Positions 1,652-39,010 of a DNA stretch of 64,000 bases are shown here, piece after piece (positions within the stretch are counted from its first letter, which is position 1; the number at the start of each line of letters is the position of its first letter). The position numbers and the translations under genes were made by a program. The stretch comes from Trueperaceae bacterium (GTDB lineage: Bacteria; Deinococcota; Deinococci; Deinococcales; Trueperaceae), in contig JAXHLW010000012.1 in NCBI GenBank assembly GCA_034521815.1, forward strand, positions 64,001 through 128,000, read 5' to 3'. The notes below the pieces were generated by a model. It was not told where the DNA came from. It was given only the letters and a program-made list of their open reading frames with translations, and searched no databases.

Positions 1652-1682
1652 GCGCCGAGGGTAGTCGCGGCGCGAATCCTGA

Positions 1683-1702
1683 GCCATGACCTCGGTCATG
1701 GC
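1683..1702. promoter_or_regulatory. CRP/FNR-type operator, copy 1, shared by divergent genes
   Basis: GCCATGAC-CTCG-GTCATGGC; centre 1692.5 is 41.5 bp from ATG 1651 (-) and 43.5 bp from ATG 1736 (+). Confidence 0.85.
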
Positions 1703-1735
1703 GCCCGCGCGGTGGCCGCCGCCATCCTCGGGCTC

Positions 1736-2037
1736 ATGACGGCTGCCGACCTCGACCGCTACGACGACGTCCGCGTCTCCGAGCTCCTCGAGGCTTCGCC
1801 CGAGGTGCTTCCGCTGCTGGTACGGCACGGCTTCGCGCCGCTTGGGAACGCGGCGATGCGCGCCGCGCTGGCGCCCACGGTGACGCTGGCGCAGGCCGTG
1901 CGCCTGCGCGGCCTGTCGGCGTCGGCGGCGCACCAGCTTCGGCGCGAGCTCGTCGAGCGTTCTGGCGCTCGACCTGCGCGGACGGCGCGTCGAACGAAAA
2001 CGCCACCGGGCATGCAGAGGTGGACGCGTGCCACTGA
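1736..2037 (+). CDS. DUF1858-like small protein (probable frameshift near the 3' end)
   Basis: VSELLEASPEVLPLLVRHGFAPLGNAAMRAALAPTVTLAQAVRLRG; the likely true end ...EVDACH* (TGA 2035-2037) is in another frame and overlaps the next start. Confidence 0.7.
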
Positions 2038-2352
2038 TCCGCACCGCCGAGCGGGCCCGGTTCCTCGACGCCGGTCCGTTCCCGCAGGCGCTGCAGGTCG
2101 GCGAGCGCCAAGCCGTGATGCTGCTCTGCCTGCAAGGCGCGCAGGAGCTCGTCGCGCCCAGCGACCGACCGGGCCGAGACGACCTTCGTCGTCCTGGACG
2201 GCGACGGCTTCGTGGTCGAGGGCGAGCGCCGGCACGCCGTCGAGGCGGGCGACGTGGTGCACGTCGCCGCCGGCATTCAGAAGGCGCTCGTCGCCGGCGC
2301 CGGGACGTTCACCGTCCTCGGCGTACGCTCCCTCTCCGCAGGCACGGACTGA
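2028..2352 (+). CDS. Cupin-domain protein, one frameshift near 2170
   Basis: MPLIRTAERARF...VMLLCLQGAQELVAP continues in the +1 frame as AETTFVVLDGDGFVVEGERRHAVEAGDVVHVAAGIQKALVA...GTD*. Confidence 0.75.
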
Positions 2353-2376
2353 AGTCCGGCCCGAAAGGACGTCCCC

Positions 2377-2613
2377 ATGTCCGACACCACCCTAGAGAGC
2401 ATCGACGTTCGTACCATCGCCCCACGCGACCGTCATCCGCTGCTGTTCCAGCGCTTCGACGCCCTCGCGTCCGGCCAGGCGTACGAGCTCGTGAACGACC
2501 ACGACCCGAAGCCGCTGTACTACCAGTTCCAGGCGGAGCGTCCCGGCGAGCTCGATTGGACCTACCTCGAGGAGGGACCCGAGGTGTGGCGCGTGCGTAT
2601 CGGCAAGCTCTGA
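2377..2613 (+). CDS. DUF2249 domain protein
   Basis: IDVRTIAPRDRHPLLFQRFDAL..G...ELVNDHDPKPLYYQF......W.YLEEGPEVWRVRIGK; AAGGA RBS. Confidence 0.92.
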   Translation: MSDTTLESIDVRTIAPRDRHPLLFQRFDALASGQAYELVNDHDPKPLYYQFQAERPGELDWTYLEEGPEVWRVRIGKL

Positions 2614-2631
2614 ACGGATGACCCGTACGAC

Positions 2632-2661
2632 GCGGCGCCGGCGAGATCTCGCCGGCGCCGC
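2632..2661. terminator. Perfect 30-bp palindrome after the DUF2249 gene, probable terminator
   Basis: GCGGCGCCGGCGAGA|TCTCGCCGGCGCCGC, 18 nt after the stop codon. Confidence 0.65.
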
Positions 2662-2728
2662 CGTCTCGAATCGGGCGTTCCTCGACGGTGCTACGATACG
2701 GACCGAGAGGACGTGGCACGCGACATTC

Positions 2729-3736
2729 ATGCCCATCCCGGCTCGATCGACCAGGACATGGCGGAAGAGGCTGAGAGGCGCGTTCGGCATCGTGGCTGCG
2801 GTCGTGGCCGTTGCCGTCGTGACGGGCTCGATCTTGCACGCGACGCTGTTCCGAGACGCATGGAAGCAGATCGAGCCGTACGGCCAGCTCGTCGACGTCG
2901 AAGACGGACGAATGCACGTCTATCGGATGGGAAACGGCGCCCGGACGATCGTCTTGTTGCCAGGTTTGGGTGTCGGGCTTCCGTCGGCCGACTTCGGGCC
3001 GCTGATGCGAAGGCTCAGCGAGACGTACACCGTCGCGACGGTCGAGTACTTCGGCGTGGGCTTCAGCAGCGAGACGTCGAGGCCGCGCACCGCCCGGAAC
3101 TATGTCGAAGAAACGAGAGTCGCGCTCCAGCGAGCGGGCCTCGGTCCCCCGTACGTGCTGATGCCTCACTCGATATCGAGCGTCTACAGCGAGTACTTCG
3201 CCGCGAGCTATCCGGAGGAGGTGGAAGCCGTCGTCTCGCTCGACGGTACGACGACCGCCCACTACGAAGAGATGCCGGCCATCGTGAAAGCCCTGCTTCC
3301 GGTCGCGAAGATTCAGCAAGCGATCGGTGCGACCTCGCTCATCGCGCCTCTGGTCATCGACAGGGCGAAGCTGCTCGCGAACGGCTATACGGAAAAGGAG
3401 ATCAGCGACATGATCGCGTTCGCGGGGTTCGCCCTGAACGACACGGTCTTGGAGCAGATTTCGAACTCGGCCGAGTTCATCGAACAGACGATGGACATGC
3501 CGTTTCCCGATTCGATCCCCTACTTCAAGGTCATCTCGAGGCAGAGCTATGAAACGTCGAACGCACAACTCGAGAACGCGAACATGACGCCGCAAGAATA
3601 CCATCAGCAGCATCTCGAGCGGATCGGCGAACACGCACAGTTCGAGGTGTTGGACGGGACGCATTTCATCTACCTCGGCAACGTCGGCCGGATTGCCGAG
3701 ATCACCGCTGAGCTCCTGCTCGAGGTGAAGCGCTAG
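2729..3736 (+). CDS. Alpha/beta-fold hydrolase with N-terminal membrane anchor
   Basis: TIVLLPGLG, PYVLMPHSISS nucleophile elbow, SLDG, C-terminal GTHFIY; visibly more AT-rich than its neighbours. Confidence 0.85.
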   Translation: MPIPARSTRTWRKRLRGAFGIVAAVVAVAVVTGSILHATLFRDAWKQIEPYGQLVDVEDGRMHVYRMGNGARTIVLLPGLGVGLPSADFGPLMRRLSETYTVATVEYFGVGFSSETSRPRTARNYVEETRVALQRAGLGPPYVLMPHSISSVYSEYFAASYPEEVEAVVSLDGTTTAHYEEMPAIVKALLPVAKIQQAIGATSLIAPLVIDRAKLLANGYTEKEISDMIAFAGFALNDTVLEQISNSAEFIEQTMDMPFPDSIPYFKVISRQSYETSNAQLENANMTPQEYHQQHLERIGEHAQFEVLDGTHFIYLGNVGRIAEITAELLLEVKR

Positions 3737-3750
3737 CAGCGTGTGCGGGC

Positions 3751-3780
3751 GCCTGACAAAATGGTGCCTGACAAAATGGT
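3751..3780. repeat. 15-bp tandem duplication
   Basis: GCCTGACAAAATGGT x2. Confidence 0.95.
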
Positions 3781-3798
3781 GCGTGGCTCGTGGAGCGC

Positions 3799-4197
3799 TT
3801 AGCTGCGCATCGGCCGCCTTGGCCGGAACAGGACCTCGACCCCGAGAGCCACGAAGCCCACGTTGGCCAGCCACGCCAGCCCACCCCAGGTCGCGAACCA
3901 GACCGGCCCCAGCCGGAATCCCCAGCCCAGCGTCATGCCGGTGACGGCGACGACGGTCGCGATCACCTGGATCAGGGCGAGCCCGGGACGACGGAACGGC
4001 ACGCCCCGGAACCGCGGGAGGGCGTGGTAGGCGACCCCTTGGATCATCAGCGTCACGAACCCCAGTGATTGCAGATGCGCGTGCGCCGGCCGCCATAGCG
4101 GCGTGAGCCAGCCGACGCCCATCGCCAGGCCCAACGTGGACCCGGTAAGGAACGCGACCAGCGCCGCGGCGATCGCGACGCGGCTGGCCGCGATCAC
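3799..4197 (-). CDS. Small 4-TM protein with a COX-subunit-I-like HAH motif
   Basis: PAHAHLQSLGFVTLMIQGVAYHALPRFRG; GTGA-coupled to the upstream cupin. Confidence 0.8.
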   Translation of the reverse strand: MIAASRVAIAAALVAFLTGSTLGLAMGVGWLTPLWRPAHAHLQSLGFVTLMIQGVAYHALPRFRGVPFRRPGLALIQVIATVVAVTGMTLGWGFRLGPVWFATWGGLAWLANVGFVALGVEVLFRPRRPMRS

Positions 4198-4517
4198 GCC
4201 GCTGCGGGTCCCGGCGTGATGATGCCGAGCACCAGGAAGCGTCCGTCGCCCGCCTGCGCGCCGTGGGGCGTGCCTGCGTCGCACGCGATCAGGGTGCCGG
4301 CCTGGGCTTGGAGCCGTCGGTCGCCGGCCCAGAGCTCGCCCTCGCCGTCCAGCGCCAGCAGGTGGACGCGCGGCTCGCCCCGCCCCGACACCTTCTGGCC
4401 CGCCTGCAGCGAGAACAGGACCAGCCGCGCCTCCGCGGTATCGCTCAGGATGCGGGTGCCGCGGCGCTCGCCGTACTCGGCCAGCGCGAGCAGGTCGACG
4501 CCTTCGAGCGGCGTCAT
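4194..4517 (-). CDS. Cupin-domain protein
   Basis: ARLVLFSLQAGQ...HLLALDGEG...AGTLIACDAGTPHG; ATGA-coupled. Confidence 0.8.
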   Translation of the reverse strand: MTPLEGVDLLALAEYGERRGTRILSDTAEARLVLFSLQAGQKVSGRGEPRVHLLALDGEGELWAGDRRLQAQAGTLIACDAGTPHGAQAGDGRFLVLGIITPGPAAA

Positions 4518-4741
4518 GCGTGCTCGCGCGGAAGCGCGCGCAGCTCGTCCAGCAGGGCGGCCACGTCCAGATCGGCGTCGTCGCACGCTTCGGCCAGCGT
4601 GGCGCTGCCGCCGCAGCAGGTGTCGATGCCGCGCTCCAGCAACAGGCCCGAGGCCTCGGGGACGAGGCGGAGAACGTCGTTCACGGTCGTGGTCGGCTCG
4701 AGGGCCGTCGAAGGCGTGGTGTCGATGCGTGGGGTGTCCAT
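4514..4741 (-). CDS. Stand-alone ScdA_N/DUF542 domain (the N-terminal domain of Ric/YtfE)
   Basis: TVNDVL...PEA...L...GIDTCCGGSATLAEAC....LD...LL.EL; no hemerythrin domain follows. Confidence 0.88.
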   Translation of the reverse strand: MDTPRIDTTPSTALEPTTTVNDVLRLVPEASGLLLERGIDTCCGGSATLAEACDDADLDVAALLDELRALPREHA

Positions 4742-4773
4742 GCGTGCAGCCTCGCCCGGATCGGGGTGGCTGG

Positions 4774-4791
4774 CCATGACCTCGGTCATGG
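4774..4791. promoter_or_regulatory. CRP/FNR-type operator, copy 2
   Basis: CCATGAC-CTCG-GTCATGG; centre 4782.5 is 41.5 bp upstream of ATG 4741 (-). Confidence 0.85.
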
Positions 4792-4855
4792 GCCGCGCCT
4801 GCCGCCCCGAGCGATCCGCTCCGCGGCACAGGTGGGAGGCGGCCGCTGGCAAACA

Positions 4856-4884
4856 TTGACAAGCATCGATGAATCGACTATCTT
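4856..4884 (+). promoter_or_regulatory. Sigma70-type promoter of the leaderless arsM-arsN gene
   Basis: TTGACA (4856)-17 bp-TATCTT (4879), ATG 6 nt later. Confidence 0.8.
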
Positions 4885-4890
4885 CGGTCT

Positions 4891-6114
4891 ATGAGCGACG
4901 AGCCACGCCCGACCCACCCCGTTCCCGACGTCGACGGCGAGCAGCTTCGCGCCGCCGTCCGTCGCCACTACGCCGCCCGCCTGAAGCAGGGCACGTGCTG
5001 CGGCACGGACACGCCGACATCGGACATGTTCGGCGTGCCGCTCGGTCTGGACGCTCCACCGGACGTCCCCACCTTCGGGTGCGGCGATCCGAACGCAGCG
5101 GCCTCGCTGCGCGAGGGCGAGACGGTGCTCGACCTGGGCAGCGGCGCGGGGTTCGACGCCTTCCGCGCGGCCGAGGCGGTCGGTCCTAGCGGCGAGGTGC
5201 TAGGTGTGGACATGACGCCGGCGATGCTGGCGCGGGCCAGGGACGGCGCCGCCCGGCTCGGCTATTCGCAGGTCCGCTTCCTGGAGGGCACGATCGAGCG
5301 GTTGCCGCTATCGGACGAAAGCGTGGACGTGGTGATCTCGAACTGCGTCGTGAACCTCTCAAGCGACGTTCCGCGCGTGCTGGACGAGGCTGCCCGGGTG
5401 CTCAGGCCCGGAGGACGGCTGCGGATCAGCGACACGTTCCGGGCGGGCTCGGTCCGGGCGATGCCCGATCATGAGACGTGGTGCACGTGCGAGGCGGGAG
5501 CGCACGATCCCGACCAGCTCGCCACCTTGGCGCGCGCCGCCGGGTTCGTCGACGTGTCGGTCGACGCGCCCCCGGCCGGAACCGAGGAGGGCGCCCTCTA
5601 CGGCGCGGTGCTCCACGGAACGAAGCCGACGATCGCGCCCTTGCGGGACGTCGACGCCGAGGTGGCGGCCCGGCTGCTGGCCGCATCCGGCCTGCCCCTC
5701 GCCGGCTGGTCCGCGCCGAACGTGGATCGCTGGGGAGCGTTCGACGGCCGCGCAGACGTCGACGACGGCGCAGAAGGTGGCCGCCTCGTCGGACTCGTCG
5801 CCCTCGAGACGCACGGCCGCCACGGGCTGCTTCGGTCGCTGACGGTCGTTCCCGAGGCGCGTGGACGGGGGCTGGCCACGTCGCTGGTCGCTCGCGCCCG
5901 TCGCGAAGCTCGGCGACGGAATCTCGAGACGTTGACGGGTCTGACGGAAACGATCCCCGACCTGCTCGTGCAGTGGGGATTTCACGAGGTGACGCGAGCG
6001 GACCTGCCGGACGCCCTGCGAGCGTCGCCTGAGCTGCAGGACGCCTGCCCCCAGAGCGCACGGGTGTTCACGGTCGACGCGCTGGCGCGGGACGAGACCC
6101 CGCTCGAGCGCTAG
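4891..6114 (+). CDS. arsM: Arsenite methyltransferase (ArsM-like) fused to an ArsN2-like GNAT acetyltransferase
   Basis: N-part: TCCG, FGCGDP, VLDLGSGAGFD, VISNCVVNL, WCTCEAGA. C-part: LAASGLP, GLLRSLTV..RGRGLA, LTET, ASPE....CPQSA. Confidence 0.8.
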   Translation: MSDEPRPTHPVPDVDGEQLRAAVRRHYAARLKQGTCCGTDTPTSDMFGVPLGLDAPPDVPTFGCGDPNAAASLREGETVLDLGSGAGFDAFRAAEAVGPSGEVLGVDMTPAMLARARDGAARLGYSQVRFLEGTIERLPLSDESVDVVISNCVVNLSSDVPRVLDEAARVLRPGGRLRISDTFRAGSVRAMPDHETWCTCEAGAHDPDQLATLARAAGFVDVSVDAPPAGTEEGALYGAVLHGTKPTIAPLRDVDAEVAARLLAASGLPLAGWSAPNVDRWGAFDGRADVDDGAEGGRLVGLVALETHGRHGLLRSLTVVPEARGRGLATSLVARARREARRRNLETLTGLTETIPDLLVQWGFHEVTRADLPDALRASPELQDACPQSARVFTVDALARDETPLER

Positions 6115-6217
6115 CTCGCGCCGGACGTGAGGCACGCCCCGCGGTCGAAGCCTACCGGGGCCCATCCGAACCGTACTGTCGGCGGCTGCGGCGTCGCGGA
6201 ACGGCTACCATGCCCCC

Positions 6218-6628
6218 ATGAACGACGAGGACCTTCGTCGCGCGGTCGGGGCCGGCGTGCGCGCGGCCTTGCCGGGCGTGCGCTGGCTCGCGTTGTTCGG
6301 CTCGCGGGCTCGCGGCGATGCGCGGCACGACAGCGATGTCGACGTCGCCGTCCTCGCCTGCGAGCCGATCGCTGAGGAGCGGTTGCGAGCCGTTAGGGGC
6401 GATCTCGAGATCGCCGTCGGACGCGACGTGCATCTGATCGACCTGCGGCGCGTGTCGACGGTGCTTCGCAGCCAGGTCGTGGCGGACGCCGACGTGCTGT
6501 TCGCGGCCGGTGACGCCGACAGCGAACAGTTCCTGGATTTCGTCCTATCGGACTACGCGCGGCTCAACGAGGAGCGCCGAGACATTCTGCGCGACGTTCA
6601 CGAACGGGGGAGCGTCCTTGGTGGATGA
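6218..6628 (+). CDS. mntA: MntA-type minimal nucleotidyltransferase antitoxin (type VII TA)
   Basis: LFGSRARGDARHDSDVDVAV (GSx10DxD); overlaps the HEPN gene. Confidence 0.88.
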   Translation: MNDEDLRRAVGAGVRAALPGVRWLALFGSRARGDARHDSDVDVAVLACEPIAEERLRAVRGDLEIAVGRDVHLIDLRRVSTVLRSQVVADADVLFAAGDADSEQFLDFVLSDYARLNEERRDILRDVHERGSVLGG

Positions 6629-7031
6629 CGTCGCCTTGAACAAGTGCGCGACGATCGAGCTCTGTCTCGCCAGGGTGCGTGAGGAGTACGGCGACGGAAC
6701 CGAGCTCGAGTCGGATCAGCGACGCCAGGACGCTCTGGTACTGAACCTGCTCAGGGCGTGCGAAACGGCGATCGACCTTGCGATGCACGCTGTTCGGAAG
6801 GCGTCGTTGGGCGTGCCGCAAAGCAGCCGGGACGCGTTCGGCTTGCTGGCGGAGGGCGGCCGCATCGCGCCGGATCTCGCCGAGGAGCTCAAGCGCATGG
6901 TGGGATTTCGGAACATCGCCGTCCATCGTTACCAGGACCTGGATCTCGACGTCTTACACGCCATCGTGCGGGAGAAGCTGCACGTGTTCGAGACGTTCGT
7001 GCGGACCCTGCTCCAGCCGCCGCGGCCGTGA
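6621..7031 (+). CDS. hepT: HepT/DUF86 HEPN ribonuclease toxin
   Basis: QDALVLNLLRACETAIDLAMH...MVGFRNIAVHRY (Rx4HxY). Confidence 0.9.
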   Translation: MDDVALNKCATIELCLARVREEYGDGTELESDQRRQDALVLNLLRACETAIDLAMHAVRKASLGVPQSSRDAFGLLAEGGRIAPDLAEELKRMVGFRNIAVHRYQDLDLDVLHAIVREKLHVFETFVRTLLQPPRP

Positions 7032-7083
7032 GGCGAATACGCGTGGAGGCTGCACGCGTCCGTCCCCGACCCCAGCGGATCGC

Positions 7084-7527
7084 TCAGCCCGCCCCGGCTC
7101 GACCGAGGCCGAGCCTCTTGTGCACCGCCAGCATGCAGGCGTCCTGGACCACGTCGATCCCGGCCTCGGCGAGCTGGCGTGCGACTTCGGCGTGACGGAT
7201 CCCCTGCTGCAGCCAGACCACCTTCGGAAGCGGCCGCATAGCCAGAATCTCCTCAGCGTGCGCGGGAAGGTTTTCGCTACGGCGGAAAACGTCGACGACG
7301 TCGATCGGCTCGTCGAGGTCGGTCACCTTGCCGCGTGGCGTCTCGCCGAACAGCTGCTGGTCGGTGTAGCGGGGGTTCACCGGCACGATCCGGTAGCCGT
7401 GCTCGCGTAGGTAGCGCGGCACGTAGTGGGCCGGTTTGCCGGGGTCGGGATGGGCGCCCAGCACGGCGACCGTGTGGGCGGTCTGGAGCACGGTCCGGAG
7501 CGCTTCGTCGCTGGTGAGCAAGGGCAT
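7084..7527 (-). CDS. CoA-binding protein (YccU-like)
   Basis: VAVLGA.....KPAHYVPRYL...GY.IVPVNP, IDVVDVFRRSE, VWLQQGI, VVQDACM. Confidence 0.9.
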   Translation of the reverse strand: MPLLTSDEALRTVLQTAHTVAVLGAHPDPGKPAHYVPRYLREHGYRIVPVNPRYTDQQLFGETPRGKVTDLDEPIDVVDVFRRSENLPAHAEEILAMRPLPKVVWLQQGIRHAEVARQLAEAGIDVVQDACMLAVHKRLGLGRAGAG

Positions 7528-7615
7528 CGCGTCTCCTTCCTTTCGCCAACGGGCCACGTCGGTCTGAACGCCGAGGTGGGCGTCCTCGGGCGGAGGCACC
7601 TGCACGATCCCTTCG

Positions 7616-7650
7616 AATTGACGCCAAATTCACGCCACGACGTTCATCCT
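7616..7650 (+). promoter_or_regulatory. 11-bp direct repeat upstream of a -10-like box
   Basis: AATTGACGCCA AATTCACGCCA (7616-7637), then CATCCT (7645-7650). Confidence 0.55.
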
Positions 7651-7726
7651 TACGTGTCCTGCCGCGCAGGTTCGCGGCGGCGGAGACGACGACCCGACCC
7701 TACCGCGTCACCGAAAGGAACCCCTC

Positions 7727-9107
7727 ATGCTCCATCCTTTCCGTTCCCTGCGTTTCGGCGCCTTCGTCCTCGCATCGTTGGCCATGCTGGTTGTGCTCGC
7801 AGCCTGTCAAGAGATAGGTGCGAGCCCCGGTGGTGACGGAGAAACCGTCTCCGTCACGATCGCGCCGCAGCTGGCGCAGTCTGGACTCACGGCCCAAGGG
7901 ATCGTGTCGGATCTGGTCATCTCCGATGTATTGGTTTTCGTGCGCGATGCGTCGACCGGTGATCCCACCAGCGACCCGGAAACGGAACCGGACTGTCTGG
8001 TGTTCGCCAGCGACGGGACCGTAGACGATACCGTCATCGATCCGACCACCGACGAGTGCGCGTTCTCGATCTGGGACGGAACCTCCGTGCTCCCCCGGAC
8101 GCTGCAGCTGCCGCCGCGAGACGGCGCAGGTGATCCGATTCCGTACGACTTCGGCCTGAACGTGCGAAGTCCTGTCGACGAAGGCCTCGGCCTCGTGATT
8201 ACCGCCGCCTTCGCGTCCGAGTCGATTTCCGAGCTCACGACGGCCACGACGCTGCCCTTCGCGAACCTGCAATCGTTCCTCGGCGCTGCGTTCTTTCGTA
8301 CCTACGCCCCGAACGACACGGCGGTGTGCCCCCCGTTCGACCTCGAGGTCGAACGGGGTGAGATCGTCCCGCTCTTCCTGTTTCCGTTCGGGTACGCAAC
8401 GGGGGGCGAGATCTGTTTCGGGGGCACGGCCTCGTCTACGCGGTCGCTCATACCTTTCGACGATTTCGGCGTCGGGCCCACCAACGTCACGCTCGACGGC
8501 GACCCTGCACCCTCGCTTCTTCTCGACGACTCGAAGCGGGGCGTACTCCTGGAGGTGCCATCCTCCGCAGCGCCGGGACAGACGATCGACGTATCGGTCC
8601 CCGTCAACGGTGTTCAAGGCCATCTTCGCTGCGGACTCGGACCAGAATCCTGACGCCGCGTTGGTGGACGGAACCCAGTTCGCTGGTGAGACCGCCTCGA
8701 TCGAGCTGCAAGTGGTCGAGCCCCCGATAGGCGCCGGCATCGCATCCGACCTGGTGGCGCCGGTGATCGAGTCGGTTTTGACGTCGGCTGCGGTCGACAC
8801 CGTGACCCTGGTGATCGGACCGACGACCGACCCGGCCGACGTGACGGACGTCGTCGCCTTTCTCGGGGTTCAGCAGGTCGCGCTCGAAGTGATCAACAAG
8901 ACTACGCAAACGGGCGCCGACGGCATGGTCTACAGCGCCCGCATCTGCAGCGACTTCGGACGCTTCACCGCTGGGACCAACCTCGAGCTGACGTTCTACG
9001 CGAGCGATCCCAGTAGCAACCAGAGCGCCGCTTTCGTACATCCGATCACCATCAACTCCGTCTATCCCGGTCCCCTCGACAGCTGCAGTTCGACCTCGGA
9101 ACTGTAG
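7727..9107 (+). CDS. Hypothetical lipoprotein, one frameshift near 8605
   Basis: AAGGA RBS, signal peptide with lipobox VLAAC; acidic beta-rich sequence; ORFs 7727-8653 and 8358-9107 join as ...VSVPV/TVFKAIFAAD... Confidence 0.7.
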
Positions 9108-9124
9108 CTCCACGGAAGAACCTG

Positions 9125-9156
9125 CGTCGCGCCCCCGGTGTGCCGGGGGCGCGGCG
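9125..9156. terminator. Hairpin between convergent genes
   Basis: CGCGCCCCCGG-tgtg-CCGGGGGCGCG. Confidence 0.7.
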
Positions 9157-9187
9157 TCGAGCATGGTGGGCGTGGACGGCCGAGGCA

Positions 9188-9876
9188 TCAGGCGGCGACG
9201 CCGAACAGGAAGCCCACCCCGGCCGTGATGGCCATGGCGAGCGCGCCCCAGAACGCCACGCGGGTCGTGGCGCGGCCGACCGGCGCGCCGCCGACGGCGC
9301 CGGCGAGCGCGCCGAGCGCCGCGAGCAACGCCAGCGAGCCGAGCGCGACCCCCACGAGACGAGACCGGCGGGGAGGAGCAGGGCGAGGAACAGCGGCAGC
9401 GCGGCGCCCACCGCGAAGGTGCCGGCCGAGGCGAACGCGGCCTGGATCGGCCGGGCGGTGTGGACCGCGGTGATCCCGAGCTCTTCGCGGGCATGGGCGC
9501 CGAGCGCGTCGTGCTCCATGAGCTTCGTCGCGACCTCGTCGGCGAGAGCCGAGTCGAGGCCGCGCTCACGGTAGAGCTCTGCCAGCTCGCGGTGCTCCGC
9601 CTCGGGCAGGCCGGCGAGCTCGCGACGCTCGCGCTCCAGGTCGGCGCTCTCGGTGTCCGCCTGGGAGCTGACCGAGACGTACTCGCCGGCGGCCATCGAC
9701 ATGGCGCCCGCGACCAGGCCGGCGACCCCGGCGACCAGAATGCCCGACCTGCCGGTCCCGGCGGCGGCCACGCCGAGCACGAGGCTGGCGGTGGACACGA
9801 TCCCGTCGTTGGCGCCGAGCACGGCGGCGCGGAGCCACCCGACGCGCTGCATGAAATGGCGTTCGGGATGTTTCAT
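9188..9876 (-). CDS. VIT1/CCC1 family Fe/Mn transporter, frameshift near 9355
   Basis: WLRAAVLGANDGIVSTASL, AGAMSMAAGEYVSVSSQAD; C-terminus ...RVAFWGALAMAITAGVGFLFGVAA* in a shifted frame. Confidence 0.92.
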
Positions 9877-10017
9877 GAGGGCACTCCTTCGAGCGAGTCG
9901 GCGCATCGCGACCGCGGAACCGTCCGCACGAGCATACGGCGCCGTGTGAGGGATGCCGATGACCGGACGCACGGGTCGCACCGGGCCGCGATGTGATCGG
10001 GACCGGGCCGTCCGGAC

Positions 10018-10347
10018 CTATCCGCGCGGTGCGTACATCATCACGACGACGCCCGCCAACGCCAGCGCGGCGCCGATCAGGTCGAACCGGTCCGGACGTA
10101 CGTCGTCCACCAGCCAGCCCCACGCCAACGCCATCGCGATGAAGATGCCGCCGTATGCCGCGTATACGCGACCGAAGTTCGCCGGCTGGAAGGTGGCTAC
10201 GACGCCGTAGAGCATCAGCAGCGCACCGCCCACGACGCCGGGCACCACGCCCGCGTCCGCTCGTAGTGCGCGCCACACCAGGTAGCCGCCCCCGATCTCG
10301 CACAGTCCGGCGACGAAGAACAGCAGTAGCGACCGCCCGATATCCAC
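10018..10347 (-). CDS. YnfA (UPF0060) small membrane protein
   Basis: AGLCEIGGGYLVW, FGRVYAAYGGIFI, PDRFDLIG. Confidence 0.92.
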   Translation of the reverse strand: MDIGRSLLLFFVAGLCEIGGGYLVWRALRADAGVVPGVVGGALLMLYGVVATFQPANFGRVYAAYGGIFIAMALAWGWLVDDVRPDRFDLIGAALALAGVVVMMYAPRG

Positions 10348-10391
10348 GGAACCGAGCCTACCGCTCGGCGCCGTGCCAGGCTGTGCCCACG

Positions 10392-10595
10392 TCAGGCATC
10401 GCGCAGCCGGGCCCTTGCCTCGTGCCACGCCAGTCCCGCGGCGAGCGACACCAGCCCGACCCCCCAGATCACCGGCTCGACGAAGAACGCCAAACCCAGG
10501 CACGACGCCGGGCCGCAGGCGGACACCCAGCGCGGCCAGCGGCGCGCCTCCGCCGGGAGACGACCGGCGCTGCGGCCGACCGCGCGACACGCCAT
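10392..10595 (-). pseudogene. Probable C-terminal remnant of an APC-family amino acid permease
   Basis: RLPAEARRWPRWVSACG.ASCLGLAFFVEPVIWGVGLVSLAAGLAWH resembles the last two TMs of APC permeases; nothing upstream. Confidence 0.45.
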
Positions 10596-11079
10596 GGCGT
10601 CGTACCACGCGTCGTACCCTGCCGGCGTGGACGAAGCTCGGATCGAAGCGTTTCTGCATCGGCACCTGCCGCTGGCCCGCGCCATGGAGGTGCGGGTGGT
10701 CCGCGTCGACGAAGATGGCGCGCGACTGACCGCGCCGCTGGCGCACAACCACAACCATCACGGCACGGCGTTCGGAGGGAGCCTGTCGGCGCTCGCCATG
10801 CTGGCGGGGTGGGCGTTCGTCCACGCCGCCCTGGAGCGCGCCGGGATCGAGGGCGCCGAGGTGGTGATCCACGAGGTGCGCTTCGCGTTCACGAAACCGG
10901 CGCGCGGCGACCTCGAGGCCTGGGTGGCCGCGCCGGAGGACGCCGCATGGGACGTCTTCGCTCGGGCGCTCGCTCGGCGTGGGCGGGCCCGTCTGGATCT
11001 CGGCTGCGAGCTTCGCAGCGAGGATGCCCAGGTCGCCCGCGCCGAGGGGCGCTACGTCGCGGTTCGTGGCGGGAGCTGA
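10594..11079 (+). CDS. YiiD C-terminal-type hot-dog thioesterase domain protein
   Basis: FLHRHLPLARAM, APLAHNHNHHGTAFGGSL, GRARL, EGRYVA. Confidence 0.85.
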   Translation: MASYHASYPAGVDEARIEAFLHRHLPLARAMEVRVVRVDEDGARLTAPLAHNHNHHGTAFGGSLSALAMLAGWAFVHAALERAGIEGAEVVIHEVRFAFTKPARGDLEAWVAAPEDAAWDVFARALARRGRARLDLGCELRSEDAQVARAEGRYVAVRGGS

Positions 11080-11291
11080 GCAAGCCGCATCGCCCGGCGG
11101 CCGCGGCTCGTGATCGGACGCGCGCTCGCTACGCGCGACCTGCGCGCGACCTGCGCGCGCCGATGACCTGGATGGCGGCGCACACCGACGTACCATGGTG
11201 GATCACGGCACCCGGACGCTAGAGGCGGACCGTGTCGCCGGCGACCAGACACTCGCGGCTCGTCACGCGAGGTCGGCGCTCGAGGAGGACG

Positions 11292-12817
11292 ATGGACGAA
11301 TACAACGGCGCCATGCTTCAGGACTTCCATTGGTACACGGAGGCGGACGGATCGCTCTGGGCGCGGCTGGCGGCCGACGCGCCGGCGCTGGCCGAGGCGG
11401 GGTTCACCTCGGTGTGGCTCCCGCCGGCGTACAAGGGCGCCGCCGGCGGCCTGGACACCGGCTACGGCGTGTACGACCTGTTCGACCTCGGCGAATTCGA
11501 TCAGAAAGGCTCGACCCGCACCAAGTACGGCACCCGCGAGGAGTATCTCGCGGCGATCCGCGCCGCGCAGGACGCCGGGATCCGGGTGTACGCCGACATC
11601 GTGTTCAACCACCGGATGGGCGGCGATCACCGCGAGCGGGTCACCGCCACCCCGTTCCACCCCGAGAACCGCCGCGAGGCGATCGGCGAGCCCCGTGATA
11701 TCGAGGCGTGGACTCACTTCGACTTTCCGGGGCGCGGGGGGCGCTACTCGACGCTCCAGTGGCACTGGTGGCACTTCAACGCCGTCGACGCCAGCACCAC
11801 CGACGCCCACGAGGACGTCGAAGGTGACGCCGTGTACCTGTTCGAGGGCAAGTCGTTCGCCGACGACGTCGACCTCGAGAAGGGCAACTACGACTACCTG
11901 ATGGGCTGCAACCTGGACGTCGCGAACCCCGACGTCCACACCGAGCTGGTCCATTGGGGCGAGTGGTACCTGGACACGACGGGTGTCGACGGCCTCCGGT
12001 TCGACGCGGTCAAGCACGTCCCGGCCGAGTTCTTCCTGGCCTGGCTGGATCACGTCCGGCGGCACGCCGGCCGCGACCTGTTCGCGGTCGGCGAGTACTG
12101 GTCGGGCCAGGGCGCAGCCCTCGATCACTTCATCGAGCGGACCGGCCGCCAGGTCCTGCTGTTCGACACCGGGCTGCAGCACGCGTTCGCCCAGGCGTCG
12201 CAGGCGGGCGGTGCGTACGACCTGCGACGGATCTTCGACGCAAGCCTCGTCGCGCGCGACCCCGCCATGGCGGTGACCCTCGTCGCCAACCACGACACGC
12301 AGCCGCTGCAGGCTCTCGAGTCGGTGGTCGAGCCGTGGTTCAAGCCTCTGGCCTACGCGGCGATCCTGCTCCGGCGGGGCGGGTACCCGTGCGTCTTCGC
12401 GGCGGACTACTTCGGCGCCTCCTACCGCGACGTGGGCCGCGACGGCCAGGAGTACGACGTGCACATGGCCAGCCACCGCTGGATGATCGACCGTTTCCTG
12501 GACGTTCGGCGCCGCAACGCCTACGGCGAGCAGTACGACTACTTCAATGAACCGAACCTGGTCGGCTGGACACGTCTGGGCGACGAGGACCATCCCGGCG
12601 GCCTGGCCGTGGTGCTCAGCAACGCTGGCGGCGGGAGCAAGTGGATGGAGACCGGCGCGCCGAACACCACCTACCACGACCACACCGACCACGTGCAGAC
12701 GCCGGTCGTCACCGACGAGCACGGCTGGGGCATGTTCTCTGCGAGCCGGGGTCGGTGTCGTTGTGGGCGCCCGAGGGTGGCGACCGGGGCGGGCACATCC
12801 GGAACGGGACCTCGTAA
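11292..12817 (+). CDS. amyA: Cytoplasmic alpha-amylase (GH13), 1-nt frameshift near 12738
   Basis: MLQDFHWY, VWLPPAYKG, GYGVYDLFDLGEFDQKG, DIVFNH, DGLRFDAVKH, VGEYW, VANHDTQP; corrected end ...FSCEPGSVSLWAPEGG...TS* (TAA 12815). Confidence 0.93.
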
Positions 12818-12848
12818 GCGTCGCCTTTCGTGTCGACCACCGTGGCCC

Positions 12849-13550
12849 TCACGCGCCGCTCGCTCGAGCCTCGAGCCCGGCGCGGTCGAGGATGGTGATG
12901 CGGTGGCGCTCGACGGCGATCAGCCCCTCGGCGGTCAGCGTGCGGAGCGTGCGCTGCAGCACGTCCTCGACCGTGCCCAGGCGCGCCGCGAGTTCGGCCT
13001 GCGTTTCCCACGTGCGCCGCGTCAGCACGGCGCCCTCAGCGTGGTGCAGCAGGTACTTGGCGGTGCGGGCCTCGAGCGGCAGGAGGGAAAGGTCCTCGAC
13101 GATCTGAACGACCTCGATCAGCCGTCGAGCGAGGTGTCGTGTGATCGGCCACAGCAAGTGGGGACGCTCGTCGACCAGCGCCTGCAGCGCGCGCAACGGG
13201 ACGCGCCAGAGGTGGGACGGTTCGAGCGCGACGAGGGTCGCGGAGTTGGGGACGTTCAGCAGCCAACCGACCTGGTTCACCACGTCGCCCGCCCCGAAGT
13301 AGTGGAGGACCTGCTCGCGTCCGGTCGGGGCCAGCTTGCTGCCCTTCAGCCAGCCGTGGTCGACGACGAAAAGGCCGTCCGGTGGGTCGCCTTCGAGAAA
13401 CACGGTGACGCCGGGTCCGACCGCGATCGCGGTCGCCTCGCGCGCTAGACGTTCCACCGCCTCGGGATCCAAGCTGGCGAGGAACGGAACGGCAGCGAGC
13501 ACTACGTGGGCGGATCGGGGTCGATGGTCATCACCGTTGGTGCCGCTCAC
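12849..13550 (-). CDS. Crp/Fnr family transcriptional regulator
   Basis: cNMP-binding fold (VFLEGDPPDGLFVV..G.LK, GREQVL, ATLVALE), LSLLPLEAR, HTH TQAELAARLGTVEDVLQRTLR; leaderless GTG after TATACT. Confidence 0.92.
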   Translation of the reverse strand: MSGTNGDDHRPRSAHVVLAAVPFLASLDPEAVERLAREATAIAVGPGVTVFLEGDPPDGLFVVDHGWLKGSKLAPTGREQVLHYFGAGDVVNQVGWLLNVPNSATLVALEPSHLWRVPLRALQALVDERPHLLWPITRHLARRLIEVVQIVEDLSLLPLEARTAKYLLHHAEGAVLTRRTWETQAELAARLGTVEDVLQRTLRTLTAEGLIAVERHRITILDRAGLEARASGA

Positions 13551-13563
13551 GCCCGCAGTATAG

Positions 13564-13610
13564 GAACTCGGCCCGCGCGCCGCCAACGCCATGGCGCGCG
13601 GGCCGAGTTC
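13564..13610. other. Perfect 18-bp inverted repeat abutting the crp -10 box
   Basis: GAACTCGGCCCGCGCGCC-11 nt-GGCGCGCGGGCCGAGTTC. Confidence 0.85.
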
Positions 13611-13728
13611 GCCCCATTATGTCGGGGAACTGGGCCGGTCCGCACTCGCGCGGGCGCTGGCGGGCGTCGTGATCAGGCGGGACGCGACGCTGGTCGACGG
13701 ACCGGCGTCGCGTCCCTCACGCCGGTCG

Positions 13729-14136
13729 TCACGGTGCCGGCAGCACCTCCGCAAGGGCGGCGAGGTGGATTTCGACCAGCCACACGGCGACGCGGTTCCC
13801 GGCTCGCAGCTCGGGCAGGGTCGCGTCGCCGTACTCGCCGGTGCAGGTCTCTCGCTCCAGCCCTTCGATCTCCGCAGGCTGCATACCGGTGGACTCCATC
13901 ACGATCGGGATCGCGGTGGCGAGGGTACCGGTGTCGGTGAGGATTTCCGCCGCGAAGCCGACGTCACGGCAGAGGCTCTCGCGCACCTCGATGATCGTCG
14001 CCCGGAGCACCTCGGGCGTGGGGTCGGCGGGCATGGGGTCGGGGAGTGGGAGGGTTTGCGCTTGCGCCGAAGCCAAGGCGAGCAGCAGGCTGGCGGTGGC
14101 CATCCAACGGAGGTGGGAGGTCAGGATTCTTCGCAT
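13729..14136 (-). CDS. Hypothetical secreted protein
   Basis: GAGGAG RBS; signal peptide ...LLLALASAQA; two Cys. Confidence 0.65.
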   Translation of the reverse strand: MRRILTSHLRWMATASLLLALASAQAQTLPLPDPMPADPTPEVLRATIIEVRESLCRDVGFAAEILTDTGTLATAIPIVMESTGMQPAEIEGLERETCTGEYGDATLPELRAGNRVAVWLVEIHLAALAEVLPAP

Positions 14137-14343
14137 CGTGGGGTCTCCTCGTGGTTCTCGTGGTTCGCGGACGGGAGCGAGCGCCGGCGCCGCGCGCGGC
14201 GCGCCTCATGACCGCGGCGGGGCGAACCGAGCTTCCGACCGGCGGCGTGTTTCGAGGGTAGGCGTCGAGGGCGGCGCGCGTCTCCGACATAGGTCGGGTC
14301 GGTCCGGCCATCGCGCGCCTCGACCTCGCACGCTCAGAAGTCC

Positions 14344-14556
14344 ATGCGCAGCGACAACCACAGGATGGGCGGCGATCACTGCGAGCGCGTCACCGCGACC
14401 CCGTTCCACCCCGAGAACCGCCGCGACGCGATCGGCGAGCCGCGCGAAATCGAGGCGCCCGTCGTCACCGATGAGCACCGCTGGGGCACGTTTTCCTGCG
14501 AACCGGGGTCGGTCTCGCTGTGGGTGCCCGAGGGCGGCGACCAGGGCGGGCGCTGA
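14344..14556 (+). pseudogene. Internally deleted, diverged mini-copy of amyA
   Basis: NHRMGGDHCERVTATPFHPENRRDAIGEPREIEA (amyA about 11607-11708) joined in frame to PVVTDEHRWGTFSCEPGSVSLWVPEGG (amyA about 12702-12790). Confidence 0.9.
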
Positions 14557-14560
14557 GACG

Positions 14561-16782
14561 CTACGCCTCGGCGACCGCGATTCCCTGGCGCTTCGCCTCG
14601 TACATGGCCTGGTCGGCCTGGCTCAGCAGCGCGTCGGCGCTCATGTCCCCGCCGGAACGGCGCACCGCCATGCCGATCGAGGCGCCGATGCGCACGCCCT
14701 GGATCTCGACCTCCTGCACGGCGCGGCTGAAGCGTCGCGCCGCTGCCAGGGCTCCGGGCGCGTCGGTGTCGGGAAGGATCATGGCGAACTCGTCCCCGCC
14801 CCAGCGGTACAGCCGGTCGCTGTCGCGCGCCACCGAGCGCAGCGCGTCCGCGACGCAGACGAGCGCTTCGTCGCCGGTAGCGTGGCCGAGGCGGTCGTTC
14901 ACCGCTTTGAAGCCGGTCAGGTCGGCGATCAACAAGGCGGTCGGCGTTTCGCTCCGATCCGCCCGTGCCAGCTCCTTCGCGAGCCCTTCGTCGAAGGCGC
15001 GGCGGTTCTCCAGCCCGGTCAGGGCGTCTCAGGGTCGAGGCGAGGTGCAGGTCGCGGCGGTGCCGCGCCTCCCTCAGCACGAAGGCGATGGCGGGCGCGA
15101 ACGCTTTGGCGACCTTGGTGTCCTCGTCCTGGAAAGCGTTCGCGTCGCTGAACGCGTCGAGGTTGACGACCGCGATCACGTCGCCGCGGTGCACGATCGG
15201 CATGCACAGATTGGCGACGATGTCGCGCAGGCTCGGCTGACCCTCGGTGCGGCCGTCGCTCGCCACGACGGAGGCGCGCTCCATCCCTTCCGGATCCCGA
15301 GCGATGCGGGCCGCGCCGACGATCCAGGCGTCGGGATCGCCGTGCCAGGCTCGCAGGTGCTCCTTGCCGAGGGTCACGTCCGCCAGGGAGACTGGGTCGA
15401 ACCCGACCACGCCGGCGTAGTGGAACCGATCGTCCTGTCCAACCAACAGGCTGCCGGCCTCGGCCCCGGGTACCAGATCGACCAGCTCGGCCAAGAGGTC
15501 CTGCGTGGCTTCGTCGAAGCCGAGCTCCAGCAGGCGGTGCTCCACCGCGAGCATGCGCTCCATCACGCGCGCCTCGCGGTCACGTTTTAGCCACAGCCGC
15601 AACGCTCGGGCGAAGTCCGCGACGAGGGCCCGGTCGTCAGCGGTCCATTGCCGGGGGGCGTCGTGGAAGAGGAGCAGATGCGTTTCGCGTAGCTCCGCAG
15701 CGGCATCGGACGGACCGCGGCCGCACGGACCCCGGCGTCGACGAAGGGCGGTGCGGCGAGGGGATCCTCGGCGTAGGCGGCGACGAAGCGTGCCACGCCC
15801 GCCCGGTAGGCCTCGTGGATCAGGCCGGTGCCCAGCGGCCACGTGCGGTGCAACAGGTCGTCGAGCTCCGGCCAGTCGTCCGTAACGACGGTTCTGGCTC
15901 TGAACACGCCACCTCCGTAGTGGACCACGGCGACGGCCCGGATGCCCAGCTCCTCGCGCAGTGTCGCCAGCGCGGCCTCGAGCGCCGCTTCCTGCGGCAG
16001 GTCGGCCACCAGGATCTCTCCGAGGCGGGAGCGCGCCAGCGCACGCCGACGGACGCGCAGGATCGCCTCGGCCCGCCCCGCCGCAGCGACGACGCCGACG
16101 ATCGCTTCGCGTTCGGCGGGCAGGAACGGGCGGGAACGGCGCACCTCGACGACGGCGGTGAGCGTGTCCTCGGAATGGATCGGCACCGCCATCGCTCGCT
16201 CGGAGGGCGCATGGGTCGCCATGCCGTGCGTCTGCGCTCGCAGCACGAACGCCTCCGGCGCGTCGCCCTCCGGCGCGTCGCCCTTCGGCGCGTCGCTTCC
16301 CGGCGCGTCCACGACGAGTCCGTCGCCGGGCACGATGCGCCACGTCGTCACGCGGTCCGGATCGAACCTTCCCAGAAGACGCGGCAGCTCGTGCAAGACG
16401 TCGAACGTGGCGCCGCTGCCCTCGACCTCTTCGAGATGGTCCAGCACCGTTTCTAGATGCGCGCTCGGCGTGGGAGGCGCGCCGAAGAACCGTCGGCGCA
16501 CACCTTTCGGCAGCGCTTGGGGAGGAACACCGCGGCGGCAGCCAGGGCCATGCCTGCGGCCCCGGCCAGAGAGACGATCGTCGCTTCGGCCACGACCGCG
16601 GCCGCCACCAGGACCAAGGAGGCGATGCGCGGCCTAGGTCCCGCGCTGCGCGCGGCGGTCCATGCGATCAGGGCGACCGCTGCTCCACGTGGCGCGGCGC
16701 CCAGCGGTGCTACCAGGGACGTGGCGTACACGAACGCGCCGAGAAGAATCGGACCGAGCGGATGCGTGCGAAGCTCAGGCAC
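14561..16782 (-). CDS. Membrane-anchored GAF-domain diguanylate cyclase, at least 3 frameshifts
   Basis: N-terminal TMs, GAF-like segments (NLCMPIVHRGDVIAVVNLD), DLTGFKAVNDRLGHATGD, YRWGGDEF, GASIG, ADQAMYEAK; start approximate. Confidence 0.8.
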
Positions 16783-17045
16783 GGGTACGCGCCCATCCTC
16801 TCGCCGGCTCGGGCCACACGTGAACGGCTCGCGGCGCGTTCGCGCCGCCACGGCGTGTCGGCCGGTCGCTCGTCGTTCGCCCCCGCATCGTACGGTCGCC
16901 CTTTCCCGCCGCGTCGCACCGTTCCGTTGGACGGTCGCGTGTCGTCGACGATTCGCGCAAAGGCTACCACCCGCCCAGCGTCGATTCGTGGGCCCACCGC
17001 GCGCCAGCGGCCGTCGCGACAGGGCGGGATCGCTCAGAACGGCGA

Positions 17046-17065
17046 GCCATGACCCGGGTCATGGC
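17046..17065. promoter_or_regulatory. CRP/FNR-type operator, copy 3
   Basis: GCCATGAC-CCGG-GTCATGGC; centre 17055.5 is 42.5 bp upstream of ATG 17098; -10 CATGCT at 17085. Confidence 0.85.
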
Positions 17066-17097
17066 GGGCGGAGGCGAGAACCGCCATGCTCGGCGTC

Positions 17098-17718
17098 ATG
17101 ACGGTCGATGCAGATCCCCTCGCGCAGAGTGTCGTCGTCGCCTACGGAAGCACCTTCGGCACGACGGAGGAGACCGCCCGGCAGATCGCCGAAGCCCTCG
17201 CGGCGCGCACCGGCCGGCGGCCGACGCTGGCCGACGTGGCCTGGACCGGCATGGCGGAGATCGTCCGGCACGACGTCCTGATCCTGGGCTCCTCCACCTG
17301 GGACGAGGGGGAGCTGCAGCCCGCCTGGAACGTCGCACTGAGCGCATTGTCCGCCAGCGACTTGCGGGGCCGCCGCGTCGCGGTGTTCGGTTGCGGCGAC
17401 CGCGCCGGCTATCCGGATACGTTCGGAGACGCGCTCGGCATCCTCCTGAGGCACGCTCGCGGCGCCGGCGCCGAGTCGATCGGCGCGTTCCCCATGGAGC
17501 GGCTCGGGTATGACCCGGGTACGTTCGAAGCGGAAGAGGTCCGCGACGGCGACGACCTCGTCGGCTTGATCCTGGACGACGAGGAGGACGACGAGGCCCG
17601 GGTCGCGCAGGTCGCGTGGTGGTGCGATCAGCTGGCGAGCGAACTGGGCCAAGGGCTCGGCGACGCCACCCAGCGGTCGGTCGTAGCGCTGCATCGCGGC
17701 GAGATCCCGGCGCGATAG
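17098..17718 (+). CDS. Long-chain flavodoxin
   Basis: YGSTFGTTE, ILGSSTWDEGELQ, VAVFGCGD...YPDTFGDALG, VGLILDDE. Confidence 0.9.
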   Translation: MTVDADPLAQSVVVAYGSTFGTTEETARQIAEALAARTGRRPTLADVAWTGMAEIVRHDVLILGSSTWDEGELQPAWNVALSALSASDLRGRRVAVFGCGDRAGYPDTFGDALGILLRHARGAGAESIGAFPMERLGYDPGTFEAEEVRDGDDLVGLILDDEEDDEARVAQVAWWCDQLASELGQGLGDATQRSVVALHRGEIPAR

Positions 17719-17737
17719 CCGGCCGACGAGCTTATCC

Positions 17738-17800
17738 ATCATCTCGACCGAGGCGTGCGCCTCGGGAATGAACAGCCCCCGAGCCGCATCATCACCGTGT
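17738..17800 (-). pseudogene. About 60-bp diverged fragment of the epimerase gene (22629-22691)
   Basis: CATCATCTCGACCGAGGCGTGCGCCTCGGGAATGAACAG...CCGCATCATCACCGTG vs CATCATCTCGACCGAGGCGCGCGCCTCGGGATGAACAG...CCGCATCATCAGCGTG. Confidence 0.8.
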
Positions 17801-39009: not shown

Positions 39010-39010
39010 C

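Follow-up and report, generated by a model that had tools for sequence, protein, structure and literature searches.

Introduction

Which regulator stands behind four promoters that carry one and the same palindrome, and has that palindrome been met before? The question is raised by a 64,000-nucleotide stretch of the genome of a Trueperaceae bacterium (contig JAXHLW010000012.1; 64 kb, hereafter the window), for which a sequence-only reading had proposed a CRP/FNR-type regulon built on three boxes of this palindrome. The three-box observation is correct, and it is far beyond chance. As judged by their letters, the boxes match an operator already in print for Thermus, and the motif is not new. 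The most likely binder, to which we give a probability of roughly 0.6, would be a DnrT-type activator of the CRP family whose gene probably lies outside the window. The more novel piece of the work is the conserved operator of a widespread, uncharacterised Crp subfamily, found beside relatives of the one Crp-family regulator that the window encodes.

Three copies of one palindrome precede four start codons

The pattern CCATGACC-NN-GGTCATGG occurs exactly three times in the window, centred at 1692.5, 4782.5 and 17055.5 (Table 1), and every copy has two arms of CCATGAC type. The 18-mer CCATGACCTCGGTCATGG stands in the same letters at 1684-1701 and 4774-4791, the arms of the first site reach out to 1683-1702, and the site at 17046-17065 is a perfect 20-mer palindrome, GCCATGACCCGGGTCATGGC; the dyad core common to all three is TGA-N6-TCA, the CRP/FNR form. 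In comparison with shuffled sequence, ATGAC-N4-GTCAT with at most one mismatch matches the window five times (three of them exact) against a mean of 0.83, and TGAC-N4-GTCA matches exactly five times against a mean of 0.67, a count of five being reached by 0 of 100 shuffles for either pattern. When up to three mismatches are admitted, the 18-mer pattern gives eight matches against 2.36, a number that 1 of 100 shuffles reaches, and its exact matches in the window are the three box sites only. The further TGAC-N4-GTCA matches at 59519 and 63145 have neither CC/GG flanks, nor the hexamer described below, nor a start codon at the box distance, and are treated as chance.

With the box centre as reference point, a single layout emerges for the four promoters: the box, 20-21 nucleotides (nt), a hexamer of the form nAnnCT that begins at +30 or +31 from the centre in all four, 6-7 nt, and ATG. 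The distance from centre to start codon is 41.5 base pairs (bp) for the minus-strand ATG 1651, 43.5 bp for ATG 1736, 41.5 bp for the minus-strand ATG 4741 and 42.5 bp for ATG 17098. On recomputation these distances agree with those that the sequence-only reading had given, the palindromes lie as exact copies where it had seen them, and its weak -10 elements (TACCCT, CATCCT, GAGGCT and CATGCT) are found at their places 6-7 nt before the ATGs. The first box lies between two back-to-back promoters, as had been claimed, with a hexamer and an ATG on each side of 1692.5. The same reading had proposed class II activation by a CRP/FNR-type protein; this is supported by the dyad and its spacing, and stands less firmly for the start sites, which derive from geometry, and for the identity of the binder.

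The geometry suggests that the four boxed genes would have leaderless starts. A ribosome-binding site was not found at the usual distance before three of the four box-proximal ATGs, and internal operon genes do have such sites, for example AAAGGA before 2377. The leaderless layout is used in this genome, because the sigma-70-type promoter TTGACA-17-TATCTT (4856-4893) of the methyltransferase-GNAT gene at 4891, only about 100 bp from box A2, ends 6 nt before the ATG of that gene. Some details tell against leaderless starts at fixed distances: the flavodoxin has an alternative in-frame start, ATG 17086, which lies 12 nt upstream of 17098 with GGAGG 11 nt before it; the GAGG inside GAGGCT lies 8 nt before ATG 4741, and that hexamer could double as a ribosome-binding site; and, given several apparent frameshifts in the window, single-base distances may carry assembly error.

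Table 1. Boxes, promoter elements and genes of the candidate regulon and of the local regulator, in window coordinates (ORF, open reading frame; aa, amino acids)
Feature	Position	Strand	Remarks
Box A1, GCCATGACC-TC-GGTCATGGC	1683..1702	none	centre 1692.5; common to two divergent promoters
Box A2, CCATGACC-TC-GGTCATGG	4774..4791	none	centre 4782.5
Box A3, GCCATGACCCGGGTCATGGC	17046..17065	none	centre 17055.5
-10-like TACCCT	1658..1663	-	6 nt ahead of minus-strand ATG 1651
-10-like CATCCT	1723..1728	+	7 nt ahead of ATG 1736
-10-like GAGGCT	4748..4753	-	6 nt ahead of minus-strand ATG 4741
-10-like CATGCT	17085..17090	+	7 nt ahead of ATG 17098
DUF2249 protein, 98 aa	1355..1651	-	Pfam; 42% identity to C-terminal DUF2249 domain of Thermus DrpB
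Polytopic membrane protein (P0121, 464 aa in full)	3..1358, runs off window	-	after DUF2249 gene
DUF1858 gene (start 1736), then cupin split over two frames	1736..2352	+	Pfam
DUF2249 protein	2377..2613	+	75% identity to Thermus DrpA; internal gene, AAAGGA ribosome-binding site
Alpha/beta hydrolase	2618..3736	+	closes plus-strand operon; putative member, from spacing only
Small membrane protein	3799..4197	-	56% identity to Thermus gene after nsrT (L083 37955-38332)
Cupin, 107 aa	4194..4517	-	65% identity to Thermus NsrT; start overlaps nsrS-like stop
ScdA_N protein, 75 aa	4514..4741	-	49% identity to Thermus NsrS
Long-chain flavodoxin	17098..17718	+	alternative start ATG 17086
Crp/Fnr-family regulator	12849..13502 (ORF 12849-13592)	-	37% identity to Thermus DnrT
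Small secreted protein gene	13729..14136	-	directly upstream of regulator
Type B box, CCCGAC-CTAT-GTCGGAGA	14281..14298	-	centre 14290.5; before 13729-14136 + regulator operon

The boxes and the genes behind them recur in Thermus

A footprint of DnrT, a CRP-family protein of Thermus, was reportedly obtained by Cava et al. in 2007. In Thermus thermophilus the palindrome CTTGACCNNGGTCATGG stands in Pnrc, PnirJ, PnorC, PnsrR and PnsrS, and in weaker form in PnirS (Alvarez et al. 2017, PMC5748679). It partly overlaps the DnrT footprint on Pnrc (PMC5748679); DnrT binding lies about 43 bp before the start of regulated promoters, the Pnrc site as quoted holding CCTTGACCCCGGTCAT (PMC7694296), and at Pnrc RNA polymerase is recruited by DnrT in vitro (PMC5748679, PMC7694296). 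In Thermus nsrR is followed by nsrS, which codes for 65 aa with a ScdA domain, and by nsrT, which codes for a cupin of 98 aa (PMC5748679). DrpA of T. thermophilus is a DUF2249 protein and DrpB combines DUF1858 with two DUF2249 domains, and expression of drpAB depends on DnrT as a CRP-like activator (PMC6282519); denitrifying conditions also induce DUF2249 genes of haloarchaea (PMC11218638).

We read three loci of Thermus JL-18 (L081-L083, 76,230 bases in total), locating the nsr cluster through their annotation, and found seven copies of TGAC-N4-GTCA. Five of the seven precede nrcD, drpA, nsrS, nsrR/norC and nirJ, one lies inside a hypothetical gene, and the seventh, a perfect CCATGACCCAGGTCATGG, stands 41.5 bp before the start of a membrane-protein gene homologous to P0121 of the window. 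The box upstream of JL-18 drpA reads CCTTGAC-CCAG-GTCATGG. An nAnnnT hexamer begins at +30 or +31 in seven of the eight promoter directions of these boxes, PnsrR being the exception; examples are CAGGAT at +30 followed by GTG at +42, and, for nirJ, GAGGAT at +31 followed by ATG at +43, and PnsrS has GAGGCT at +30, the same hexamer at the same offset as the window's nsrS-like gene.

The likeness extends to the arms themselves. One arm of CTTGACCNNGGTCATGG equals the window arm and the other is off by one base, the perfect CCATGACC-NN-GGTCATGG with both arms identical to the window is present in JL-18 too, and the form CTTGACC-NN-GGTCATGG of the nitrate and nitrite respiration clusters is the same kind of operator as the window boxes. 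Thermus and the window also have in common the downstream families (nsrS, nsrT, drpA/drpB-type and the membrane protein), the hexamer offset of +30/+31, and one box shared by divergent genes. They differ in host (Thermaceae against Trueperaceae), in the distance from box to start, which is 41.5-43.5 bp at all four window starts and ranges from 41.5 to 74.5 bp in Thermus, and in the flavodoxin, a target in the window that has no counterpart in the Thermus loci read. Unlike in Thermus, no nar, nir, nor, nsrR or dnrS gene was found within the window, and DnrS gave no tblastn match there at E <= 0.01.

Gene assignments in this 72% G+C window come from third-position guanine-plus-cytosine (G+C) content, Pfam (116 ORFs submitted) and NCBIfam, and the identities to Thermus in Table 1 from tblastn in both directions. 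The DUF1858 ORF meets no in-frame stop before 2395, which is why we regard 1736..2352 as apparently frameshifted. ScdA_N gave no tblastn match in the plasmid collection at E <= 0.001. Over 376-383 aa, P0121 shares 32% identity with the Thermus gene at 4117-5268 of L082; that homologue has a perfect box in front and a metal-sulfur cluster assembly factor behind. The P0121 family is rare (40 relatives at E <= 0.001 among 8000 candidates scored) and a few of its distant relatives carry COX1; a membrane protein of this type could be an enzyme that handles nitric oxide (NO) or O2.

For the claims first made about these genes the outcome is mixed. Of the three operons described as DUF2249 clusters only two gene sets hold DUF2249, that of 4741 consisting of ScdA_N, cupin and membrane protein. 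The claim of a regulon keeps its substance, since a regulon-type operator precedes homologues of Thermus genes, and loses its novelty, the motif having been published already. The guess of low O2 or NO as the inducing condition agrees with what is reported of the Thermus homologues, nsrST and drpAB (PMC5748679, PMC6282519).

Relatives of the local regulator carry a different box

The only Crp-family gene of the window by Pfam, at 12849-13502, probably starts at GTG 13502, because its homologues are about 223 aa long, DnrT aligns from 13505 and the promoter TTGGCG-18-TATACT lies at 13586..13557. The top match to it in the plasmid collection, with 37% identity at 86% coverage, is a Crp/Fnr gene of Thermus, which in JL-18 follows a GAF-domain gene, divergent from narC-narGHJI, and is dnrT by position. 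Among named relatives, a Trueperaceae MAG protein with 84% identity comes closest to a branched-chain aminotransferase of the window, and those nearest to the regulator and to its neighbour are likewise from Trueperaceae; a maximum-likelihood tree of 22 proteins places the regulator inside an 8-row clade, with support of 100/99, of Trueperaceae and related metagenome relatives. The same tree does not separate DnrT from a second Crp paralogue, whose neighbour in L022 is an operon of cupin, ferredoxin, COX1-like and DUF2249 genes. No FNR-type cysteine cluster was found in the regulator, no NCBIfam regulator subfamily scored above cut-off (FtrB, CRP, Fnr and LdrP were all far below), and the best chains in a PDB sequence search, none of them close, are labelled only Crp/Fnr-family (E about 4e-17) and DNR (6e-14).

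An alignment of 30 relatives was used in a scan of contigs that gave 589 pattern matches and 278 confirmed relatives, of which the best 80 were kept as loci L001-L080 (1.17 Mb; mostly Anaerolineae, with few Trueperaceae). A box of the form NGAC-N4-GTCN with an A/T-rich spacer adjoins the regulator gene in 71 of the 80 loci (79 boxes), and its strongly conserved form, YCGAC-AAAA-GTCGAAGA, is asymmetric, with the A/T spacer itself conserved (for example at L010 3942, L005 10679 and L057 10650). Among all 1024 five-base palindromes with a 4-nt spacer, TCGAC-N4-GTCGA is the commonest in the 1.17 Mb, with 32 copies. Of 96 pattern matches in L001-L080, some of them intragenic chance matches, 58 have a TAnnnT hexamer that begins at +30 (51 matches) or +31 (7 matches), counted from the centre and oriented on the GTCGAAGA side. 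The strings CGACAAAAGTCG and CGACTTTTGTCG were not found in the literature searched.

This box, which we call type B, shares with the window boxes the GAC-N4-GTC core, the -10 hexamer at +30/+31 and cupin genes among the targets. It differs in having C, not T, before GAC (C 139, T 17 and A 2 over 158 half-sites), in its conserved A/T spacer and in its targets: ferredoxin-cupin, ferritin-like/Dps, peroxiredoxin and small secreted proteins. Among 61 ORFs next to subfamily boxes, Pfam found 4Fe-4S ferredoxin in 21, cupin in 15 (6 with both) and ferritin-like domains in 4; behind the box in Trueperaceae-type loci stand a peroxiredoxin-like gene and a Dps-like gene, both named from their translations, and a small secreted protein. 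One half of the box is TGAC in 17 of the 79, and seven of those read CCTTGAC, as in Thermus; such hybrids form a bridge between the two types of box.

The regulator's own operon carries a type B box, YCGAC-N4-GTCGR with a hexamer at +30/+31, and this holds for that operon, not for the CCATGAC boxes. Outside the spacer, the box at 14281-14298 equals the regulator-side box of L057; TACCCT (14260..14255, minus strand) begins at +31, and a search with the type B pattern finds this single exact match in the window. CGAC-type boxes are not enriched in so GC-rich a window (TCGAC-N4-GTCGA 12 against 7.96, CGAC-N4-GTCG 13 against 9.37), and for that reason the site is assigned by position and by homology to other loci. 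The protein of 13729-14136 is 43-52% identical to the gene that follows regulator and box in L002-L005 and L016; an Atlas search with it gave only scores below 0.9.

An attempt to assign the CCATGAC boxes to the local Crp gene by footprinting orthologue loci failed, the 80 loci giving a different box. ATGAC-N4-GTCAT itself occurs five times in those 1.17 Mb (other spacings, 0-1), which we treat as near chance because the copies stand before unrelated genes, among them a cation efflux protein and an F420-dependent reductase family protein.

FNR, DNR and NnrR boxes have consensus forms of their own. With class II CRP/FNR promoters in general the window promoters share the TGA-N6-TCA dyad, a weak -10 and the lack of a -35, and their box centres would fall near -41.5; their arms read CCATGACC, not TTGAT or TTGCG. 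Dyads of the latter kinds do occur in the DUF2249 clusters of Anaerolineae loci, each time beside a second Crp-family gene. In L052, TTGCG-ATAT-CGCAA and TTGCA-TTTT-TGCAA (1785-1800, 2584-2599) lie in a DUF2249 cluster, adjoining an NnrS-like gene and an operon of DUF1858 and hemerythrin-DUF2249 genes; in L011, TTGAT-CCAG-ATCAA (20204-20219) precedes ferredoxin, multicopper-oxidase, Fe-S-assembly and DUF2249 genes. In form these dyads resemble NnrR and FNR/DNR boxes. The Thermus narC-dnrS intergenic region (L081 7150-7163) holds GGGAC-ATCT-GTCCT, with a GAC-N4-GTC core and an A/T spacer, which resembles the type B box and not the TGAC box.

Which protein binds the boxes

From the boxes, their spacing and their homology to Thermus, all observed, we infer the transcription starts, the binding protein and the inducing signal. 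The boxes would be Thermus-type operators that drive four promoters with a weak -10, no -35 and a transcription start that falls on the start codon or right beside it. A DnrT-type protein of the CRP family would, as a dimer, bind the TGAC-N4-GTCA dyad some 41.5-43.5 bp before the start and, once bound, would recruit RNA polymerase in class II fashion. Switched on in this way would be the nsrS-nsrT homologues, the drp-type DUF2249/DUF1858 genes, a membrane protein distantly like haem-copper oxidases, and the flavodoxin; the signal would be low oxygen plus nitrogen oxides. An NsrR-type Rrf2 protein may add a second, NO-dependent layer on the same palindrome, as reported for Thermus. We favour a CRP-type activator because of the form of the dyad, the fixed -10 spacing as in Crp-linked boxes, the CCTTGAC hybrids and the published DnrT data at Pnrc, and its gene is more likely to lie outside the window than to be that of 12849-13502.

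Several observations pull the other way. In the Thermus study no gel shift of PnirS, PnirJ or PnorC was obtained with purified DnrT, in contrast to NsrR; PnorC fragments lost the shift without the palindrome, and the authors assign the palindrome to NsrR (PMC5748679). A DnrT orthologue was not found within the 64 kb, and boxes with two TGAC halves are absent beside the subfamily regulators (0 of 79). In the loci read, the clade to which the local regulator belongs is one of regulators with CGAC-type boxes, and DnrT falls outside it on a long branch; the recognition-helix stretch, TVEDVLQR in the window protein, is TVPEAVSR in DnrT, and the remaining 28 members of the alignment have TVPDVL[H/N/S]R.

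The gel data lead to the strongest alternative, which we nevertheless hold to be rather unlikely: that the palindrome is bound solely by an NsrR-type Rrf2 iron-sulfur (Fe-S) protein encoded outside the window, which here would activate in response to NO and elsewhere would repress. Thermus NsrR, a 141-aa Fe-S protein of the Rrf2 family, shifts PnirS, PnirJ and PnorC, and thus DNA that holds this palindrome; its dual role as activator and repressor is described as new for the family (PMC5748679). Homologues of nsrS-nsrT stand behind the box, in Thermus these two genes come immediately after nsrR, and the content of the window regulon, with a domain of the ScdA/RIC type, points to NO and Fe-S damage, as would suit NsrR operators. 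Such operators usually adjoin an Rrf2 gene, and none was found in the 64 kb either by tblastn with Thermus NsrR (best E-value 0.77) or by Pfam among the 116 ORFs. The dyad has the CRP/FNR form, the box geometry matches Crp-linked boxes, with a -10 spacing equal to that of the boxes linked to Crp genes in 71 of 80 loci, and at Pnrc DnrT alone recruits polymerase in vitro (PMC5748679, PMC7694296).

Unlikely too, and overlapping with the favoured activator of DnrT type, is a scheme in which the local regulator itself activates through the three CCATGAC boxes as well as through its own CGAC-type box. It is the sole Crp-family gene found in the window, with the boxes 3.5-12 kb to either side, its best plasmid-collection match is DnrT, and the boxes of its subfamily tolerate one TGAC half. 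Only the regulator and its 82% relative P0001 have, within the recognition helix, E in place of P and Q in place of H/N/S, the residues of the 28 further sequences in the alignment; these two substitutions may leave room for altered specificity, and its own operon nonetheless keeps a CGAC-type box. Its place in the tree among CGAC-box Trueperaceae regulators, with DnrT outside, speaks against it, as do the preference for C before GAC in 139 of 158 half-sites, the lack of any subfamily box with two TGAC halves, and the fact that the 64 kb cover part of a contig of at least 190,952 bp.

That the palindromes are copies of a repetitive extragenic palindromic (REP)-like repeat, or RNA hairpins serving as attenuators or terminators, is highly improbable: transcribed, the sites would fold into hairpins of 8-13 bp (-15.5 to -21.2 kcal/mol, z about -2.9), and yet there are only three copies in 64 kb, with unrelated flanks, no T-run after any site, three terminator-like sites in 1-18000 with none at a box, no Rfam family match in 1-20000, and every copy upstream of genes at one fixed distance, these genes being homologous to box-bearing Thermus genes.

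A DnrT-type activator as binder can also be set within a wider scheme, which we offer as a speculation that we doubt more than we believe. One palindrome would be the landing site for both DnrT-type CRP and NsrR-type Rrf2 proteins across Deinococcota; in the present organism it would be uncoupled from nar, nir and nor and would run a stand-alone low-oxygen/NO regulon of leaderless genes (nsrST-like, drp-like, oxidase-like membrane protein and flavodoxin), and the E/Q helix would have retargeted the local regulator from CGAC to TGAC boxes.

The wider region

Apparent frameshifts occur at 1736-2395, 12700-13448 and 14376-16501, and they reflect either gene decay or indels introduced by the assembly. 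The reading frame of an alpha-amylase continues for about 600 nt into the regulator gene, antisense to it and beyond the end expected from the usual length of such enzymes, and pieces of GAF and GGDEF domains are spread over three frames at 14376-16501. In predicted genes, third-position G+C is about 0.75-0.89 over the first 21 kb and higher, mostly 0.90-0.96, at 21000-64000, suggesting that the region with the boxes was acquired or has degraded.

Between the boxes lie a toxin-antitoxin pair of nucleotidyltransferase and HepT-like type (6218-7031) and, on the minus strand, a VIT1-family iron transporter (9052-9981); a similar pair, a nucleotidyltransferase domain protein with a DUF86 protein, stands on the Thermus plasmid L083 at 20124-20916. 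Farther on, the minus strand carries two genes for NTPases of the STAND/NB-ARC type, of which one has TPR repeats, and a weakly NosL-like gene (20806-21735, 28091-30910 and 38515-39057).

Significance

Our findings extend the regulatory code of Thermus denitrification to a second lineage of Deinococcota, in which the small nsrS/nsrT and DUF2249/DUF1858 genes and the box go together although no gene for a nitrate, nitrite or NO reductase was found nearby. As the spacing from box to hexamer is shared with Crp-linked boxes in 71 of 80 loci, it argues for a CRP-type activator in the question, raised by the Thermus literature, of whether DnrT or NsrR acts on the palindrome. The candidate regulon gains a flavodoxin and an oxidase-like membrane protein, and an uncharacterised Crp subfamily that is common in Chloroflexota and Trueperaceae acquires a testable operator, YCGAC-AAAA-GTCGAAGA.

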